Below, piece after piece: positions 2,873 through 11,167 of a DNA stretch of 64,000 nucleotides. Each line of letters begins with the position of its first letter. Position 1 is the stretch's first letter. The translations under genes were made by a program, and so were the position numbers. Source of the DNA: a virus; UHGV virus genome UHGV-0033546. One strand, given 5' to 3'. The notes beneath the pieces were generated by a model, which saw nothing but the letters and a program-made list of their open reading frames with translations, made no database searches and had not been told where the DNA came from.

Positions 2873-3967
2873 ATGGCAATTGTTAAAGAAATAACTGCTG
2901 ATTTAATTAAAAAGTCTGGTGAGAAAATTTCAGCCGGACAGAGTACTAAATCAGAAGTAGCAACTAAAACATACACTGCCCAGTTTCCAACTGGGCGTGC
3001 TAGTGGTAATGACACTACAGGGGACTTCCAGGTAACAGATCTATATAAGAATGGATTATTATTTACTGCATACAATATGTCATCTAGGGATTCTGGAAGT
3101 CTTAGAACGATGAGATCTAACTACTCTTCTTCATCTTCGAGTATTTTACGTACAGCTAGAAACACTATCAGTAATACAGTATCAAAACTATCAAATGGAT
3201 TAGTATCAGATAATAATTCAGGAACAATAAGTAAAGTTCCTGTTGCAAATATTCTTTTACCTAGATCTAAATCTGACGTCGATACGTCATCACATAGATT
3301 TAATGATGTTCAAGATAGTCTTATTACAAAAGGCGGAGGTACTGCTACTGGTGTGCTAAGCAATATGGCTTCAACCGCAGTATTTGGAGCATTGGAAAGT
3401 ATAACACAAGGTATAATGGCTGATAATAATGAACAGATTTATACTACAGCCAGAAGTATGTATGGCGGTGCTGAGAATAGAACTAAAGTGTTCACTTGGG
3501 ATTTGACTCCGCGTTCAACAGAAGATTTAATGGCTATTATTAATATCTATCAGTATTTTAATTATTTTTCTTATGGTGAAACGGGTAAATCTCAATATGC
3601 TGCTGAAATAAAAGGATACTTAGATGAGTGGTATCGTTCTACATTTATTGAACCATTAACTCCAGAAGATGCAGTTAAAAATAAGACGTTATTTGAGAAA
3701 ATGACATCGAGTTTAACGAACGTTCTAGTAGTTTCAAACCCGACAGTTTGGATGGTGAAAAACTTTGGTGCAACATCTAAGTTTGATGGAAAAACGGAAG
3801 TATTTGGCCCATGCCAAATACAGAGTATCAGATTTGATAAAACACCAAATGGTAATTTTAATGGATTAGCTATTGCTCCAAATCTTCCTAGTACATTTAC
3901 CCTTGAGATTACTATGAGAGAAATTATTACGTTAAACCGTGCTTCTTTATATGCGGGGGCTTTCTAA
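2873..3967 (+). CDS. 48: baseplate tail-tube junction protein gp48
   Basis: 364-aa ORF, same length as T4 gp48; synteny. Confidence 0.85.
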   Translation: MAIVKEITADLIKKSGEKISAGQSTKSEVATKTYTAQFPTGRASGNDTTGDFQVTDLYKNGLLFTAYNMSSRDSGSLRTMRSNYSSSSSSILRTARNTISNTVSKLSNGLVSDNNSGTISKVPVANILLPRSKSDVDTSSHRFNDVQDSLITKGGGTATGVLSNMASTAVFGALESITQGIMADNNEQIYTTARSMYGGAENRTKVFTWDLTPRSTEDLMAIINIYQYFNYFSYGETGKSQYAAEIKGYLDEWYRSTFIEPLTPEDAVKNKTLFEKMTSSLTNVLVVSNPTVWMVKNFGATSKFDGKTEVFGPCQIQSIRFDKTPNGNFNGLAIAPNLPSTFTLEITMREIITLNRASLYAGAF

Positions 3968-4932
3968 TGTATTCTTTAGAGGAATTTAATAACCAAGCAA
4001 TAAACGCAGACTTCCAACGCAATAATATGTTTAGTTGCGTTTTTGCGACAACTCCATCAACTAAAAGCTCTTCGTTGATAAGTTCAATTAGCAACTTTTC
4101 TTATAATAACTTGGGCCTAAATTCAGATTGGTTAGGACTAACTCAAGGCGATATTAATCAGGGAATTACCACGTTAATTACTGCTGGCACACAAAAACTG
4201 ATAAGAAAATCAGGGGTTAGTAAATATCTTATTGGTGCTATGAGTCAACGTACAGTTCAAAGTTTATTAGGCTCATTTACAGTTGGTACATATTTAATTG
4301 ACTTCTTTAACATGGCGTATAACTCATCTGGTTTGATGATATATTCTGTAAAAATGCCAGAGAATAGATTATCCTATGAAACTGACTGGAACTATAACTC
4401 TCCTAATATTCGTATAACTGGAAGAGAATTAGACCCTTTGGTTATTTCATTCAGAATGGATTCAGAAGCATGTAACTATCGTGCAATGCAAGACTGGGTT
4501 AACTCCGTTCAAGACCCAGTAACTGGACTGCGTGCTTTGCCGCAAGATGTCGAGGCAGATATTCAGGTTAATCTTCATTCTCGCAATGGATTACCACATA
4601 CTGCGGTGATGTTCACTGGATGCATTCCAATATCAGTGAGCGCTCCTGAGTTATCATATGACGGAGATAACCAAATAACTACATTTGATGTTACTTTTGC
4701 GTATAGAGTCATGCAGGCTGGAGCAGTTGATAGACAAGCTGCCCTTGAATGGCTTGAATCTGCTACTATAAATGGTATTCAAAGCGTTCTCGGAAATAGT
4801 GGAGGTGTTACTGGACTATCTAATTCGCTTTCACGACTTAGTAGATTAGGGGGAACTGCAGGAAGCATTTCAAATATTAATACTATGACAGGAATTGTCA
4901 ATTCGCAAAGTAAAATATTAGGAGCAATATAA
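3967..4932 (+). CDS. 54: baseplate tail-tube initiator gp54
   Basis: 321-aa ORF (T4 gp54 about 320 aa); start overlaps gp48 stop (TAATG). Confidence 0.85.
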   Translation: MYSLEEFNNQAINADFQRNNMFSCVFATTPSTKSSSLISSISNFSYNNLGLNSDWLGLTQGDINQGITTLITAGTQKLIRKSGVSKYLIGAMSQRTVQSLLGSFTVGTYLIDFFNMAYNSSGLMIYSVKMPENRLSYETDWNYNSPNIRITGRELDPLVISFRMDSEACNYRAMQDWVNSVQDPVTGLRALPQDVEADIQVNLHSRNGLPHTAVMFTGCIPISVSAPELSYDGDNQITTFDVTFAYRVMQAGAVDRQAALEWLESATINGIQSVLGNSGGVTGLSNSLSRLSRLGGTAGSISNINTMTGIVNSQSKILGAI

Positions 4933-4936
4933 CAAT

Positions 4937-4966
4937 GGGGACCTTTCGGTCCCCATATTTTTATTT
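4937..4966 (+). terminator. rho-independent terminator after gene 54
   Basis: hairpin GGGGACC-TTTC-GGTCCCC at 4937-4954 followed by ATATTTTTATTT. Confidence 0.55.
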
Positions 4967-5251
4967 ACGGAATGAAATAAAAGCAGCAACTGAAGCAACT
5001 AAACTGTCTTCAATATAAACTTCAATTTTTACCGGAGCTTCTGACTCAAATTTACCTGTTACTACACCTTGGAAAATGCTTTCAGTCTGTTCTGGCTTTG
5101 AAAAATTTTCAGAAGGAAAAATTCCGAACTTTTTATCTGTTCCAAAAATTTTGATAAATTCATCATAAACTGCTTCATTGAAAGCGTTATCAGCGGGAAT
5201 AACGCCCTCAACGACGAGTTCTTGACCTAAAAAGCGCAAAGAAGATTTCAT
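4961..5251 (-). CDS. hypothetical early protein (96 aa)
   Basis: ATG at 5251, GAGGAA RBS, early-type promoter immediately upstream. Confidence 0.5.
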   Translation of the reverse strand: MKSSLRFLGQELVVEGVIPADNAFNEAVYDEFIKIFGTDKKFGIFPSENFSKPEQTESIFQGVVTGKFESEAPVKIEVYIEDSLVASVAAFISFRK

Positions 5252-5282: not shown

Positions 5283-5312
5283 ATTATAACACAACACGAG
5301 GGACTTGTAAAC
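5283..5312 (-). promoter_or_regulatory. T4-type early promoter (GTTTAC -35, 18 bp, TATAAT -10)
   Basis: - strand GTTTAC at 5312-5307 and TATAAT at 5288-5283; module near-identical to the one upstream of alc. Confidence 0.5.
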
Positions 5313-7369
5313 TACATCTTGAACTTTTTAGACATTCCGTTGATGTTAACCAAAGAAGCCAATATTTGAGAAACTTCGTTTTCCTCTTCTTTTGATTCTT
5401 CTACAAGGAATTGATTAAACCCAGCCATTGGACGAACTTCACCAGTTTCCATTAGATGATCGCCATCATATACTGATTCTTCTAATTGTTCAGAAGGAGG
5501 AACGATTGTGCCTTCGATTAGATACTTATTATAAGCAGTTTCTTTCGTCATGTACGTACTTACTTTATTAATCTTCAGTAAAATTCCACGTGGCAAAATA
5601 ACTTCAGCTTCGGATGGAAATCCTGATAAATGACCTGGAACGATAACTTTAACTCGTTCAGCTCCTTTAATTACCATACCTACATTAGTTTCAGCGTCTT
5701 CATTCGCATATGTAGAATGACTACCCATATGCATTAAATCTTCGGCATCAACTGAACCTTCTCCTTCGCCAGAAAATACTGCTCCGGAATCATCTAAGGC
5801 CATATAATTTTTACCATACTCACCAAAGATATTTGGTTTAAGTGATGTCGATACGAAGTTCTTGAAATAGAACATTTTATTTTCAATGTTATGACGCAAA
5901 GTTTTAAAGGTAACTTCTTGCCCGCGATAAAGAGTAGTTCCTGGAGGAAGAACTGAACCTTTAGTAAATGCAGAATCTAACGCTTCGATGTTCTTAATAG
6001 CACGTTCCATATATTCTTCACGGGTGGAATCTGGTTTACCTAAAAGGAACGAGTTCATTTCAACATATGAATCTGCACAATACTCTTCAATTACATCAGA
6101 CTCAGCCTGAGTTAATCCTTTTGGAGTTACTTCAGTGCTTGCATATTCATACGCCTGAGCAGCGGATTCATCAATCAATTTATAAATTCCATTCATTACA
6201 AATTGAATAATAGCTGTCTTTTCATCTGGTGTAGCTTTAGAACCTTTAACTAAATCATTGATAATTTTCTTAATAACATCAAAGCTATTAGAAATATTAA
6301 TATCAGCAAGATCGCTTAAAATTTTATCAGCTTTATAATTAAAAAATTCTTTATTCTTTGAATATTCCTGAGAACCTTGATATGATATATCGCTCTGCAA
6401 CTTGATAGATGGATCACGTAAACGTGCATGAGCCAATGCAATATGATTTCTGAAGCTTTCTAATTCATAATCGCTAGATTTAAAACGAGAAGCACTTCTC
6501 ATACCACCGATAGCTCCTTTGCTGAAGTTTGAACCAACTTGAATAACACCAGAGTTCATCGGTCCTTCTGCTTTATATACCGGAACTTTAGATTCAAACT
6601 CTTGATATTTCTTGGCAGCGAAGCTATCACCCTGAAGTGAAGCATCAACAGTAGAATATTGAGCTTGTGCTGCTAATCGACGACTAATTTTAGTTTTTTG
6701 AATAACAGCTTGATCCGTACGCTTATCATTTTCTAAAGCAATAGAAGCAGCAACAGCAACAGCTTTAGGAACAGCATTGCCTGTTTTAACGTCTACATAA
6801 ACATCACCGACCTTTGATTCAACTTTTGTGAATAGCTCTGTTGAAATAGGAGGTACACCTGGAATGTCTTCTAAGTTAGCATTTTTACGGTAAACCATAA
6901 TATATGCATACTTTTTATCATAATCCCAGATTTCCTTTAAAAGAACGTATCGACCTGCTCCTTTAGTACGTACTAAACGGTCAGCAATAACTTGCAATTG
7001 ACGAGCTGCGCCATTTGTTTTACTCTTTAGTACGCGGAATAAGCATGCATCAATTTTATACTGTTTCATTGTTTGAAGAGCAGTATCAAAAACCGCATTA
7101 ATGACACCAATTGGATTTCCACCTAAGTTTTTAAGTTTAACTAATGATAGTTTCTCATTAACACCTATCATTACGACATGCATCATTTTATCGCCTGGCT
7201 TAACGTTTTTATTTGTATCACCACCAGAGGTGTATGTACAAAATCTAAATCCAGGAAGCACGCTTTCTTCACCGGCTTGAATAGCAAAAATTTGAGGTAT
7301 TTTATGCTTAGGATTTAAGTTAACAACCGGCGCCGAAGCGCCGTCAAATAATTCTGTAATAAGTTCCAT
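5312..7369 (-). CDS. Alt-like ADP-ribosyltransferase paralog (internal head protein family)
   Basis: 685-aa ORF; N-terminal ~250 aa closely parallel the upstream Alt (MELITELFD..., CTYTSGGDTN, KIDAC, GRYVLLKE, DYDKKYAYI), C-terminal half diverged; AAGGAT RBS. Confidence 0.75.
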   Translation of the reverse strand: MELITELFDGASAPVVNLNPKHKIPQIFAIQAGEESVLPGFRFCTYTSGGDTNKNVKPGDKMMHVVMIGVNEKLSLVKLKNLGGNPIGVINAVFDTALQTMKQYKIDACLFRVLKSKTNGAARQLQVIADRLVRTKGAGRYVLLKEIWDYDKKYAYIMVYRKNANLEDIPGVPPISTELFTKVESKVGDVYVDVKTGNAVPKAVAVAASIALENDKRTDQAVIQKTKISRRLAAQAQYSTVDASLQGDSFAAKKYQEFESKVPVYKAEGPMNSGVIQVGSNFSKGAIGGMRSASRFKSSDYELESFRNHIALAHARLRDPSIKLQSDISYQGSQEYSKNKEFFNYKADKILSDLADINISNSFDVIKKIINDLVKGSKATPDEKTAIIQFVMNGIYKLIDESAAQAYEYASTEVTPKGLTQAESDVIEEYCADSYVEMNSFLLGKPDSTREEYMERAIKNIEALDSAFTKGSVLPPGTTLYRGQEVTFKTLRHNIENKMFYFKNFVSTSLKPNIFGEYGKNYMALDDSGAVFSGEGEGSVDAEDLMHMGSHSTYANEDAETNVGMVIKGAERVKVIVPGHLSGFPSEAEVILPRGILLKINKVSTYMTKETAYNKYLIEGTIVPPSEQLEESVYDGDHLMETGEVRPMAGFNQFLVEESKEEENEVSQILASLVNINGMSKKFKM

Positions 7370-7372
7370 GAT

Positions 7373-9466
7373 TTATCCTTGAACGAACTTGTAAGGCATG
7401 TTTGTAATATCTATGCAAGACGCAATAATTCCAAGAGATGATTCTACTTTTTGTTTAACATTTGATGAAACAAATGATGCAAAGTCAACTCTGTTTTCTG
7501 TTTCAATATCACCTGTCATTGCAACTACTTCGCCGGTTTCCATTAAACGGTCTCCGTCATAGATTACCGATTCGGTGAGTTCTTCCGTAGTCATAACTTC
7601 AGCTTGAATGAGTTTTGTATTATTAGATGTTGTTCCGTCATTATTAGAAGCATCAGTTATTTTATTAACTTTGACCATCAATCCGCGCGGTAGAATAACT
7701 TCAGCTTCTGTTGCTATTCCGAGACTTCCTGGATATACAACATTAACTTTATGAGCTCCATCAATTGCCCATCCTATTTGAACTTTAACGTATTCAGGAT
7801 TTTCTTTATACGCTCTTATTTCATTTGGATTAATAGTTATTCCTTCTTCATTTTTATCAACTGTTAATTCATTACGAGCTTCTGGTTCTAAAAGACCAAT
7901 ACCAGCATGTGTAATTCCAAAACGTCCAAAAATGATAGGAGTTAAAGAAGTAGATACAAAATTTCTGAAATAGAACACTTTATTTTTAACTAGTGCTTCG
8001 TATATAGGAGCAGTCATACTTTGAGCACGATAAACTGTGATGCCTTCCGGTATACGGTCACCATTTTCAAAAGCTGAATCTAAGTTATTTATAGCAGATT
8101 CAATTTCTTTTTCACTCATTACATCATATCGTTCTGGATTGTAACGACCTAAAAGAAGATTATTGATGTCAGTATATCCTGAACCGCAATATTCTCTAAT
8201 GCCACGCTTTTGTAATGGAGTATATTTAGAACCATCGCGGGCAATAGTAATATCAATCATTGAACCAGCACCAATTCCAGAAAAACTGTAAATCATTCGT
8301 TTGAGGAATTTAGTTTTTGCTGCGTTCCAGGAATTTTTAGTTATTTCTTCCCAGACTTCATCTGGTTGTCCTTTACGGGTTTTATTATGACTAGCAAGCC
8401 ATTTATCTTTATAATCTTCAAAGAATTTATTAACAGCTGCTGCGTATTTCTCTAAACATTTTATTGAAGTAGTTGGTTCATTTTTAATCGCGTTAAAAAT
8501 TACATCTTTAATTTTTTCTGAAACTTCACCGACTTGACTCATTGGAAAGAATTTATAGTCATAGTGAAGTTCATCTGCAGTTCCTTCAGCAATAATTTTT
8601 GCTGCCTTAGTTTTAGAAGCCAATGAATTAATTCCAAGTTTCATTTCTTCTGCTTCGGGAATTAAAGGAGCGGTGGCAGGTTTATTGAAATTAGCTGCGG
8701 TAGATTCATACTTCTGGAATAATTCACTTTCAAATCTAGAAGATTCTAATGATTGACTTTGCGCAATTGCTCTACGGGAAATTTTAACTTTAACGATTAC
8801 AGCTTGGTCAGAACGTTTATCGTTTTCTTGCGCAATAGATGCTGCAATTGCCTCATTTTTAGTTACTTGAGCTCCGGTATCTTTATTGATATAAACATCA
8901 CCGACCTTCGATTCAACTTTAGTAAAGAGCTCGGTACTAATTTCCGGAACTCCTGGAATGTCTTCTAGTGATACATTTTTGCGATGTATAAGAATATATG
9001 CATACTTTTTATCGTAATCCCAGAGTTCCTTAAGAAGGACGTATCTGCCACCTGAGCGACTACGGATAAGTCTATCAGCAATAAGTTGAATTTGTCGAGC
9101 TTGGCCAGCGGTTTTAGACTTAAGAATACGGAGCATGCAGGCATCAATTTTATATTGACGCATTGTTTGCATTGCAACAGTAAAAACTGAATTGATATAA
9201 TTAATTGGGCTTGGACCAAGACCTTTTAGTTTAGCAATTGAACCTTTAGCAGTTAATGTAAAAGGAACAATATGCATCATTTTATCGCCCATTTTTAAAT
9301 CACGGTTAGTATCACCTCCGGATGTATAGGTACATAAACGAAAGCCTGGTTGTTCAATTGCATCATCAACATGAACTGAAAAAATTTGCGGTATTTTCTT
9401 CTTTGGATTTAAGTTTGTAATCGGAAGAGTAGTATCTTCGTCAAATAATTCTGTAATAAGTTCCAT
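7373..9466 (-). CDS. alt: Alt ADP-ribosyltransferase (packaged internal protein)
   Basis: 697/698-aa ORF starting MELITELFDEDTTLPITNL as recalled for T4 Alt; late promoter upstream; tandem ATG, second has better RBS spacing. Confidence 0.85.
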   Translation of the reverse strand: MELITELFDEDTTLPITNLNPKKKIPQIFSVHVDDAIEQPGFRLCTYTSGGDTNRDLKMGDKMMHIVPFTLTAKGSIAKLKGLGPSPINYINSVFTVAMQTMRQYKIDACMLRILKSKTAGQARQIQLIADRLIRSRSGGRYVLLKELWDYDKKYAYILIHRKNVSLEDIPGVPEISTELFTKVESKVGDVYINKDTGAQVTKNEAIAASIAQENDKRSDQAVIVKVKISRRAIAQSQSLESSRFESELFQKYESTAANFNKPATAPLIPEAEEMKLGINSLASKTKAAKIIAEGTADELHYDYKFFPMSQVGEVSEKIKDVIFNAIKNEPTTSIKCLEKYAAAVNKFFEDYKDKWLASHNKTRKGQPDEVWEEITKNSWNAAKTKFLKRMIYSFSGIGAGSMIDITIARDGSKYTPLQKRGIREYCGSGYTDINNLLLGRYNPERYDVMSEKEIESAINNLDSAFENGDRIPEGITVYRAQSMTAPIYEALVKNKVFYFRNFVSTSLTPIIFGRFGITHAGIGLLEPEARNELTVDKNEEGITINPNEIRAYKENPEYVKVQIGWAIDGAHKVNVVYPGSLGIATEAEVILPRGLMVKVNKITDASNNDGTTSNNTKLIQAEVMTTEELTESVIYDGDRLMETGEVVAMTGDIETENRVDFASFVSSNVKQKVESSLGIIASCIDITNMPYKFVQG

Positions 9467-9489
9467 CATATCCTCTCTAGTGTTTATTC

Positions 9490-9497
9490 TATTTATA
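9490..9497 (-). promoter_or_regulatory. late promoter TATAAATA upstream of alt
   Basis: + strand tatttata at 9490-9497 = TATAAATA on - strand, about 25 nt upstream of alt ATG. Confidence 0.5.
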
Positions 9498-9502
9498 AAA
9501 TT

Positions 9503-9520
9503 AAAGGCCCGAAGGCCTTT
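9503..9520 (-). terminator. stem-loop / probable terminator
   Basis: AAAGGCC-CGAA-GGCCTTT hairpin followed on - strand by AATTTTATAAAT. Confidence 0.45.
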
Positions 9521-9707
9521 AATAATCTAATGGTAAGAGAGTACGGTATATTTCAAACTTTGGACCTTTTTCATAGGCATCAAATGTTTCTGTAAATTTA
9601 TTATAAGCGTATGCATCTACAAATTCAAGCATGATTTGTGATACAGAAGTAGAAACATCTCCGCCTTCTTTTTGAGCTACAACAATTGTTTCTAAGTAAG
9701 CTTTCAT
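9519..9707 (-). CDS. hypothetical protein (62 aa) downstream of ligase
   Basis: ATG overlaps ligase stop (ATGA), implying translational coupling. Confidence 0.5.
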   Translation of the reverse strand: MKAYLETIVVAQKEGGDVSTSVSQIMLEFVDAYAYNKFTETFDAYEKGPKFEIYRTLLPLDY

Positions 9708-11167
9708 AGACCAGTTACCTCATGAAAATCACCAAATACATCCTCGAATGTATTAGCTTTAGTTTTATCTTCACGCAAACGAATCGCAATTGGAAGAAAT
9801 AATTTAACGTAATCAGCGCGACCATCAGATTTTAACCAACCGTTGCATTCGCACTCTAGAATTTTTCCAATATAATAATTTTGGTTTTCCATGATGCGAG
9901 TACGGTCAAGTTCGTGTGATTTTACACCGGCTTTATCTTTTAAGCCTGAACCAGCATTTACTTTAATTTTTCCACACTCTGACTCGAGAATAAATCCACC
10001 CGCTTTAGTAGGGTCTTTACGGTGAGGATAAATTCCTACAATTTTTAAATCAACATCAATTACTTCTTTAAATTTATAGAGATTTTTTGAACGAGCATTT
10101 TCCCATAACCCATCGACGTTTTTGAGAATAATACCTTCAAGACCTTGGTCAATATATTTTTTATAAATTACCTTGGCTTCGTCTAAATTATTTACTACCT
10201 GGTTTTCAATTAAAATTACTTTGTCATATCCTGATGTCATTTGTTCTAATTTAGAAAAACGTACATCATACTTCAAACGAAATGCTGGAAGACCGTATAT
10301 TTCTACCAACGGAACATAATCCCATACCTGAAACTTCATGCATTGAGCTTCTTTTTCAGAAATGGTTCCTTTTAAGGATTTATTGGCGATTCCATTAGAA
10401 GTAGTACGAGATTCCGCTACTTCAGCGAATTCTTTAGCTTTACTAATTTCAGGATAAGCATCAAAAAGAAAATCTAGGCCTTCTGGTTCCTTTTTAACTT
10501 GCTCATGGTATACCAATTCGCCATCAATTAACACACCTTCTGGATGAATCTGGCGGGCTTCAGCGGTCATTTTGATTAACTCTTCTTTAAGAAAATCTAA
10601 TCCTAGATATTCATTACCAGCTCGTGATAAAAGACGAACATCGTCTAATTCATCACCTCTGATTTCAGCAAAACACCGAGCTCCATCTGCTTTTAACTGT
10701 GCAAAGGCTGGAAATTTGATATTCTTATTAATGCCTTTTTCGTCATAAGAACTTGCAAGCATTTGAGGTTGTTCAGGAATTAAACCTGGCCAGACTTTGT
10801 TTGCAATAGATACAGAAGCACCACATTCAAGGTCTCGCATCATCACTCGACGCAAAACTTCAACATCATCTTTTTTACCGTCAGTAATATAACCAATTAA
10901 TTCTTCAATTGCCGCATTTCCGGTTAATTTCCGAGTAGCTAACGTGAATTCAATAAAATCAAGCATATCGGTAATAGTCAACATTCCAAAACTCTGGGTG
11001 GCAATGCCGGGTTTAGGCCATTTTTTGATATAATACTGCAACCCGCGAGAATAAGTTAGACGATATACTCGTTTAAGCAATTCATTATCTTTATTCTTTT
11101 CAAGAATTGCCTGCTTCTGCTTAGTTGAACCAATAGATGCTATTTCATTCAGAATTTTAAGAATCAT
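9704..11167 (-). CDS. 30: ATP-dependent DNA ligase
   Basis: 487-aa ORF; sequence matches T4 DNA ligase as recalled, incl. adenylation motif KADGARCF. Confidence 0.95.
   Translation of the reverse strand: MILKILNEIASIGSTKQKQAILEKNKDNELLKRVYRLTYSRGLQYYIKKWPKPGIATQSFGMLTITDMLDFIEFTLATRKLTGNAAIEELIGYITDGKKDDVEVLRRVMMRDLECGASVSIANKVWPGLIPEQPQMLASSYDEKGINKNIKFPAFAQLKADGARCFAEIRGDELDDVRLLSRAGNEYLGLDFLKEELIKMTAEARQIHPEGVLIDGELVYHEQVKKEPEGLDFLFDAYPEISKAKEFAEVAESRTTSNGIANKSLKGTISEKEAQCMKFQVWDYVPLVEIYGLPAFRLKYDVRFSKLEQMTSGYDKVILIENQVVNNLDEAKVIYKKYIDQGLEGIILKNVDGLWENARSKNLYKFKEVIDVDLKIVGIYPHRKDPTKAGGFILESECGKIKVNAGSGLKDKAGVKSHELDRTRIMENQNYYIGKILECECNGWLKSDGRADYVKLFLPIAIRLREDKTKANTFEDVFGDFHEVTGL

Follow-up and report, generated by a model that had tools for sequence, protein, structure and literature searches.

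The locus described here lies in the virus genome UHGV-0033546, of which one stretch of 64,000 nucleotides (nt) was analysed, hereafter called the window. The source genome is that of a Tequatrovirus (T4-like), and the nearest database genomes are approximately 95–96% identical to it at the DNA level. Two co-oriented open reading frames (ORFs) on the minus strand, 3 nt apart and both matching the Alt family of ADP-ribosyltransferases (ARTs), were found in the window; the upstream gene of the pair is referred to as altA and the downstream gene as altB. That two intact Alt-family ART genes are present in tandem, as the original prediction for this DNA had held, is virtually certain. The genes and the parts of their products are listed below, by residue number where a part is defined on the protein.

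7373..9466, minus strand: altA, 697 amino acids (aa), 77.9 kDa, Alt-family ADP-ribosyltransferase, ortholog of T4 alt
Residues 1-6, minus strand: altA propeptide MELITE
Residues 7-240, minus strand: altA N-module
Residues 241-412, minus strand: altA variable helical region
Residues 413-628, minus strand: altA ART domain
8027-8029, minus strand: altA catalytic R480
7946-7954, minus strand: altA STS, residues 505-507
7700-7708, minus strand: altA EAE, residues 587-589
7571-7579, minus strand: altA LTE, residues 630-632, putative gp21 site
Residues 633-697, minus strand: altA C-terminal propeptide
5312..7369, minus strand: altB, 685 aa, 75.8 kDa, Alt-family ADP-ribosyltransferase, full-length form of T4 alt.-1/alt.-2
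7352-7369, minus strand: altB propeptide MELITE, residues 1-6
6650-7351, minus strand: altB N-module, residues 7-240
6125-6649, minus strand: altB variable helical region, residues 241-415
5495-6124, minus strand: altB ART domain, residues 416-625
5924-5926, minus strand: altB catalytic R482
5843-5851, minus strand: altB STS, residues 507-509
5603-5611, minus strand: altB EAE, residues 587-589
5477-5485, minus strand: altB LEE, residues 629-631, putative gp21 site
Residues 632-685, minus strand: altB C-terminal propeptide

Two start codons can be considered for altA: the ATG at 9469, which gives 698 aa, and the second in-frame ATG at 9466, which gives 697 aa. The start equivalent to 9466 is used in the RB14 annotation, and the Shine–Dalgarno spacing also favours it (the distance to GAGG is 5 nt, as against 2 nt for the ATG at 9469). 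The two ORFs named in the original prediction are thus present as described; its pairing of 698 aa with an end at 9466 does not quite agree.

Both genes encode modular Alt-family mono-ADP-ribosyltransferases of about 76–78 kDa, each built from five parts: the propeptide MELITE, a PF26846 N-domain, a helical region, an ART domain of the C3/VIP2 type, and a C-terminal propeptide. PF26846 (Tevenvirinae_ADPRT) is recorded on the N-terminal part of close full-length homologs (precomputed annotation); no Pfam match besides PF03496 and PF26846 was obtained for the Alt proteins, and the MuF domain was absent. Over their full length altA and altB are 42% identical (BLASTP, E 1e-161). When the alignment is divided by region, identity amounts to 67% in the N-terminal part (residues 7-235), 19% in the middle (residues 240-415), 37% in the ART domain and 45% in the C-terminal tail, which contains the conserved block SV(I)YDGDxLMETGEV. 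All of the shared N-terminal blocks quoted in the original prediction were located in both proteins by BLASTP and alignment. Its description of the C-termini as divergent is imprecise, the middle being the most divergent part and the extreme C-terminus being conserved again.

An ART catalytic core is present in altB, a point on which the original prediction had been made to depend, as judged from the Pfam match, the R-STS-ExE motifs and the fold of the AlphaFold model; nor is the pair a recent exact duplicate, given 42% identity and an N-terminal synonymous divergence (dS) of about 1.2. Matches to PF03496 (ADPrib_exo_Tox) were obtained at 7.8e-37 for altA and 1.9e-20 for altB, and both proteins match phrog_802 ("Alt-like RNA polymerase ADP-ribosyltransferase") over their whole length (altA 1-696, 1e-271; altB 1-685, 7e-256). 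The catalytic residues stand in the same contexts in both (Arg in VYR/LYR, STS in FVSTSL, ExE in EAEVILPRG), and R, STS and ExE are invariant across an alignment of 23 sequences. In the HMMER alignment the VYR and EAE of altA fall on the corresponding motifs of CdtA. A sequence search of the PDB returned no match for altB at E<=0.01 and only weak CdtA matches for altA; the Pfam match and the fold search take precedence over this outcome. The AlphaFold2 model of altB (mean predicted local distance difference test score 73.9, predicted template modelling score 0.69) is composed of an alpha/beta N-domain (~12-195, with helices extending to ~240), a helical region (~200-415) and an ART domain (~420-625); the last of these matches Vis, Certhrax, C3bot, CDTa, iota Ia and VIP2 (Foldseek E 7.5e-7 to 1e-4). 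Residues 1-11 and 630-663, which surround the two putative gp21 sites, are disordered in this model.

Fold and catalytic residues (R, STS, ExE) are thus held in common with the C3-like and binary-toxin ARTs of the R-S-E clade (PF03496), in which the ExE motif is associated with arginine specificity. The differences from these toxins lie in sequence (14–20% identity to the window proteins) and in delivery, the toxins being secreted, whereas Alt enzymes are delivered from the phage head and are fused to a phage-specific N-module. The window proteins also have an insertion of about 50 residues after STS and before the strand that leads to ExE (altA ~510-565, altB ~512-560), for which the Pfam model has no counterpart. 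It is nearly unalignable between altA and altB (9–19% identity), is disordered in the altB model (517-540), and is a candidate determinant of substrate choice. The residues directly before ExE differ as well, reading SGFPSEAE in altB, LGIATEAE in altA and LAPSNEME in T4; this region corresponds to the ADP-ribosylating toxin turn-turn (ARTT) substrate-recognition loop of C3-like ARTs.

The surroundings of the pair and the signals by which it may be expressed are as follows.

2873-3967, plus strand: gene 48
3967-4932, plus strand: gene 54
4935..4956, both strands: bidirectional terminator hairpin between alt.-3 and gene 54 (terminator scan)
4961..5251, minus strand: alt.-3, 96 aa, DUF5498, last gene of the late transcription unit (PF17602, 1.4e-64; position as in T4 and RB14)
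5283..5311, minus strand: sigma-70/T4-early-type promoter for alt.-3, TTTACA-17 nt-TATAAT with TG before the -10 element (11/12 positions match)
7376..7380, minus strand: altB Shine–Dalgarno sequence AAGGA, adjoining the altA stop codon (7373-7375) and 6 nt upstream of the altB ATG
8086..8093, minus strand: second perfect TATAAATA, inside altA, ~717 nt upstream of the altB start
9471..9477, minus strand: altA Shine–Dalgarno sequence GAGAGGA
9490..9497, minus strand: T4 late-promoter consensus TATAAATA, 24 nt upstream of the altA start codon
9503..9520, minus strand: GC-rich hairpin AAAGGCC-TTCG-GGCCTTT followed by a T-run, terminator-like, after alt.1 and before the late promoter (read directly)
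9519-9707, minus strand: alt.1, Phage_blade
9704-11167, minus strand: DNA ligase gene 30

The gene order around altA and altB is that of T4, and the same position is found in RB14. The pair is flanked by gene 30/alt.1 on one side and alt.-3/gene 54 on the other; it is encoded on the strand not used by genes 48–54 and follows the late promoter, an equivalent of which lies upstream of alt in T4 and RB14. The simplest reading is that altA, altB and alt.-3 would be co-transcribed from the late promoter at 9490-9497, because only 3 nt separate the altA stop codon from the altB ATG and no terminator lies before the hairpin at 4935-4956, which is the first terminator-like site downstream of the pair on the minus strand. 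The original prediction had assigned altB its own ribosome-binding site and no promoter; the former is present (AAGGA), and the latter does not hold strictly, a second TATAAATA being located inside altA. RB14 shares this internal element, and the T4 allele lacks it. It may represent an additional late promoter, which could add altB transcripts, or a chance match; seven TATAAATA matches occur in the 64-kb window, as against 8.8 expected by chance. A sigma-70 scan within altA and altB gave nothing above background (22 sites vs 18.6 expected), and no site of the MotA-box middle-promoter pattern was found upstream of either gene.

Further signals were noted around the pair. The hairpin at 9503..9520 was not listed by the consensus terminator scan; conservation of a terminator ahead of alt has been described for T4-like genomes (Nolan 2006, PMC1524935). 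The pattern TGCTTYA-N11-13-TANNNT occurs 11 times in the window (2.5 expected), which fits T4-type middle promoters, and the sole MotA-like site on the coding strand in the region lies inside altB (6621-6644, minus strand). The near-consensus early-type promoter of alt.-3 (TTTACA-17-TGTTATAAT) begins directly after the altB stop codon. Because alt.-3 has this promoter of its own, it can, as predicted from these signals, be expressed early by itself, and also late by read-through. Mutants of T4 Alt.-3 with C-terminal extensions escape the CmdTAC ART defence system (PMC11618068).

The ratios of nonsynonymous to synonymous substitution rates (dN/dS) relative to RB14 were 0.052 for altA and 0.057 for altB. 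Judging from these low values and from the many near-identical records, both genes are clearly maintained by selection. The altB protein is at least 95% identical (aa) in 396 phage records; altA of the window type is at least 95% identical in 293, and its best match is 60–80% identical in 212, a band that includes the T4-type allele. The tandem pair itself occurs in more than 300 records (about 300–400), including T2, RB14, RB51 and RB68. In RB14, RB51, T2, RB68 and others, the alt/alt.-2 pair agrees in gene content, order and 3-nt spacing (DNA 96%, aa 97–98% identical) and shows no substantive difference from the pair in the window, which is a slightly divergent member of this type. The gene pair is accordingly already known, being annotated in RefSeq/GenBank for hundreds of phages as alt plus alt.-2 or as two "Alt-like" genes. 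The occurrence of alt paralogs in T4-like genomes was noted by Nolan 2006 (PMC1524935), and two paralogous Alt-like proteins (43.29% identity) have been described in phage 6phi13, for which the same inference of functional divergence was drawn (2026 paper, PMC13600099).

In our reading, the window contains two intact late alt genes of a Tequatrovirus, the products of which are modular ARTs that would be packaged and injected and would act on differing sets of targets; a probability of about 0.8 is assigned to this overall picture. For enzymes that enter the host together with phage DNA, Alt is the standard textbook case. The proposed course of events is the following. Both genes would be transcribed from the late promoter at 9490-9497, and altB would be translated from its own Shine–Dalgarno sequence, starting 3 nt past the altA stop codon. 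Both proteins would then be built into the prohead core and trimmed by gp21 at ITE-6 and at LTE-632 (altA) or LEE-631 (altB), and after injection with the DNA they would ADP-ribosylate arginines of host proteins. As two old and different effector cassettes, they would probably address different target sets.

The closest known counterpart of altA is T4 Alt (NP_049811, NAD+--arginine ADP-ribosyltransferase), which it resembles in locus, in R/STS/ExE, in the ITE-6 and LTE motifs and in the late promoter. The N-module (240 residues) is 99% identical between the two, the remainder 58% and the ART domain 64%, and about 430 nt in the middle of the genes are unalignable at the DNA level; the altA of the window is the T2/RB14-type allele, not the T4-type (293 vs 212 records). 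Because the effector parts and alleles differ, results on the targets of T4 Alt need not transfer to altA of the window. The altB protein has the same five-part architecture as T4 Alt and an N-module 67–68% identical to it, and its effector part is 33–35% identical to T4 Alt and altA alike.

Distinct host targets for altA and altB are slightly favoured, because identity between the effector parts is only about 35% and the residues before ExE differ. The competing explanation is that altB is a redundant dosage copy which acts on the same host targets as altA (RNA polymerase alpha etc.) and raises the amount of injected enzyme. It draws on the family, architecture, arginine-predicting ExE and propeptides common to both proteins, on the fact that T4 does well with a single copy, and on the description of T4 Alt as an enzyme whose host substrates go beyond RNA polymerase alpha (PMC9503650). 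We nevertheless consider redundancy unlikely. The low identities in the middle and in the ART domain and the different residues preceding ExE speak against it, as does strong purifying selection on both genes, which is unexpected for a redundant duplicate. The effector types are, moreover, conserved separately across genera: the ART domain of altA is 94% identical to that of copy 1 of the Dhakavirus AnYang and that of altB 59% identical to that of copy 3, as compared with 33–41% between paralogs within a genome.

The case for packaging is built on comparison with T4 Alt, a component of the prohead core present in about 40 copies (PMC9958956), which is cut by gp21 at ITE-6 and at LTE-619, the latter about 63 residues from its C-terminus, to give a mature protein of 68.2 kDa (mass spectrometry, PMC5694885); the mature mass calculated from the T4 Alt sequence is likewise 68.2 kDa. 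The corresponding motifs are ITE-6 and LTE-632 in altA and ITE-6 and LEE-631 in altB, the C-terminal site being aligned with T4 LTE-619 and situated about 55–65 residues from the C-terminus in both window proteins. Cleavage at these sites would give mature masses of 70.1 kDa (altA) and 69.0 kDa (altB). The aligned motifs fit packaging and processing of both proteins, and a packaging function common to the two N-terminal parts would be consistent with the cleavage motifs, with the hybrid genes and with the grouping of N-modules by lineage (the last two described below). Packaging and injection of altB are accordingly regarded as probable. 

The alternative, that altA alone is injected and that altB remains unpackaged and acts late inside the infected cell on phage or host proteins, is rated somewhat lower still than redundancy. 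The altB protein is made late and could act in the producing cell, nothing places it in virions, and non-packaged phage ARTs have a precedent in T4 ModA and ModB (PMC9503650); yet altB keeps an identical MELITE, an LxE aligned with T4 LTE-619, the conserved block of the C-terminal propeptide and an N-module 67% identical to that of altA, and in the isolates ECML-134 and PST the altB effector, joined to an altA N-module, constitutes the sole Alt protein.

Several points weigh against the picture of two packaged effectors with separate targets. Motifs of the form [LI]xE are common (8–10 per protein), and only the aligned positions carry weight. The published capsid-targeting signal of Alt is a short propeptide, and a packaging role of N-domain residues 7-240 is putative for every Alt. 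Neither activity assays, virion proteomics nor target data for altB were found in the searchable literature. Neither of the two effectors is essential, since altB has been lost from T4 and the altA effector from ECML-134 and PST. Finally, with the internal TATAAATA at 8086-8093, expression of altB could depend only in part on the upstream promoter.

The age of the pair was judged from its divergence and from comparison with other genera. In the Dhakavirus AnYang (L007 5995-12255) three tandem alt genes are separated by 3-nt gaps; Aeromonas phage 31.2 carries two full alt copies and a 319-aa ORF, the Krischvirus ECD7 one copy and a C-terminal fragment, and Melville a single frameshifted copy. 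N-modules within one genome are 67% identical in the window, 66–88% in AnYang and 56% in Aeromonas 31.2, as compared with 41–46% between Tequatrovirus and Dhakavirus. For the effector parts the relation is reversed, those of altA and altB being 78% and 55% identical to their other-genus counterparts and 33% identical to one another. By these identities, N-modules group by genome and effector modules by type across genera. The N-terminal dS between altA and altB (~1.2) is near saturation; because of this and of the cross-genus pairing of effectors, the duplication is judged to be old and not a simple case of duplication followed by divergence.

A recent duplication within the phage lineage followed by fast C-terminal divergence, the simple model implied by the original prediction, would account for the tandem layout, the 3-nt spacer, the similar lengths and the common N-terminus. 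It is very improbable in view of the near-saturated dS, of effectors that are each nearer to a counterpart in another genus than to the paralog beside them, and of N-modules that are more alike within a genome than between counterparts of different genera. For an old pair, the pattern points to gene conversion and/or co-adaptation to a phage-specific partner as what keeps the N-termini of one genome alike, or to exchange of cassettes. The ligase and gp54 flanking the locus are 65% identical between the window and AnYang, and at the DNA level the two are 80.6% identical over the ~1.27-kb altA effector region vs ~66% in the flanks, which suggests that the altA cassette is unusually constrained or has moved between genera. 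As a separate observation, the first 28 coding nt (MELITELFD) are identical in altA and altB (9439-9466 and 7342-7369, minus strand) despite the N-terminal dS of ~1.2; gene conversion could account for this, as could a constraint at the nucleotide level that acts on the translation start or the propeptide.

Recombination within the shared N-terminal region is recorded in six clean altA(N)::altB(C) hybrids (P0003, P0004, P0005, P0007, and the Alt proteins of ECML-134 and PST). Each contains a single crossover; the six crossovers, all between residues 43 and 224, differ in position. At each of the four loci examined (L003, L004, L005 of ECML-134 and L006 of PST), no alt gene other than the hybrid lies between alt.1 and alt.-3. 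Unequal crossing-over between tandem direct repeats would be expected to yield such genes, and they provide evidence that it has recurred within the N-terminal region that altA and altB share. Assembly collapse was considered as the sole cause of the hybrids and was rejected: the junctions must exist in the DNA, the six crossovers come from independent assemblies, and two of the four single-gene loci, those of ECML-134 and PST, come from deposited genomes of isolates. In metagenome contigs, collapse of a tandem pair that has undergone gene conversion may still contribute.

These features invite comparison with polymorphic-toxin and MuF-type head-packaged effectors, in which a conserved delivery module is combined with exchangeable C-terminal toxin domains (PMC9503650, PMC5512222). 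The alt arrays resemble them in comprising 1–3 tandem copies with a lineage-specific N-module, exchangeable ART cassettes and recombination within the shared module; hybrid crossovers at residues 43-224, N-modules grouping by genome and effectors grouping by type are what a delivery module with exchangeable cassettes entails. Unlike polymorphic toxins, the alt array lacks MuF, and the cassettes seen are all ARTs of one family rather than diverse folds. A cognate immunity gene directly downstream of each cassette was not found, the gaps between copies being only 3 nt; alt.-3, the only small downstream gene, is also kept where altB is deleted (T4) and has no known immunity role. As a tentative proposal, which we hold with less than even confidence, the alt locus may represent an array of injected effectors that recombines. 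Its lineage-specific delivery module (propeptides plus PF26846), held similar in the tandem copies through gene conversion or co-adaptation, would provide the substrate for crossovers by which old and functionally distinct ART cassettes are swapped, fused, lost and even passed from genus to genus, and altB would have a host target of its own. On that proposal, the target of altB would possibly be a component of defence or translation rather than RNA polymerase.

The state of the locus in T4 can be explained from the window. In the T4 annotation, alt.-1 (NP_049810) and alt.-2 (NP_049809) are attributed to an old duplication of the initial part of alt. In DNA alignment they match the first ~350 nt of altB at high identity, i.e. 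its 5' end, and the corresponding small-ORF families phrog_23015 and phrog_15247 match altB (2e-40, 8e-38) much more strongly than altA (1e-21, 2e-19). T4 lacks window positions 7022..5331 (1.69 kb), the junction lying at a 9-nt microhomology CTAAA(A/G)AGT (window 7022-7031 and 5323-5331; T4 locus, L001, 3105-3113), and a missing nucleotide in an A-run splits the remnant into the alt.-1 and alt.-2 ORFs. By this alignment, T4 alt.-1/alt.-2 is what remains of altB after a 1.69-kb deletion and a frameshift. The alt.-2 ORF of T4 ends in sequence created by the deletion, continuing in a different frame into the promoter region of alt.-3. The notion that altB of the window is itself a decaying or catalytically dead copy that is merely still open, for which this T4 remnant and the frameshifted or truncated alt genes of Melville and ECD7 could be cited, is extremely improbable in the face of the intact 685-aa ORF with all catalytic motifs, the low altB dN/dS, the 396 records at ≥95% identity and the retention of the altB effector alone in ECML-134 and PST.

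As a genomic observation the alt pair, which the original prediction identified correctly and interpreted correctly in its main lines, is real and ordinary, having been annotated and published before; what is new here lies outside the window and consists of the hybrid genes, the three-copy Dhakavirus array and the grouping pattern of N-modules and effectors. Most sequenced relatives of the T-even phages, T2 included, carry a second intact and strongly conserved Alt paralog, and nearly all functional work on Alt has been performed with T4, which has one intact copy of a minority allele. In studies of early host takeover or counter-defence by phages of the T2 or RB type, altB and the non-T4 altA should be treated as separate effectors. 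If the alt locus is indeed a recombining array of injected effectors, T4 would under-represent the first minute of host takeover by most T-even phages, T2 among them.

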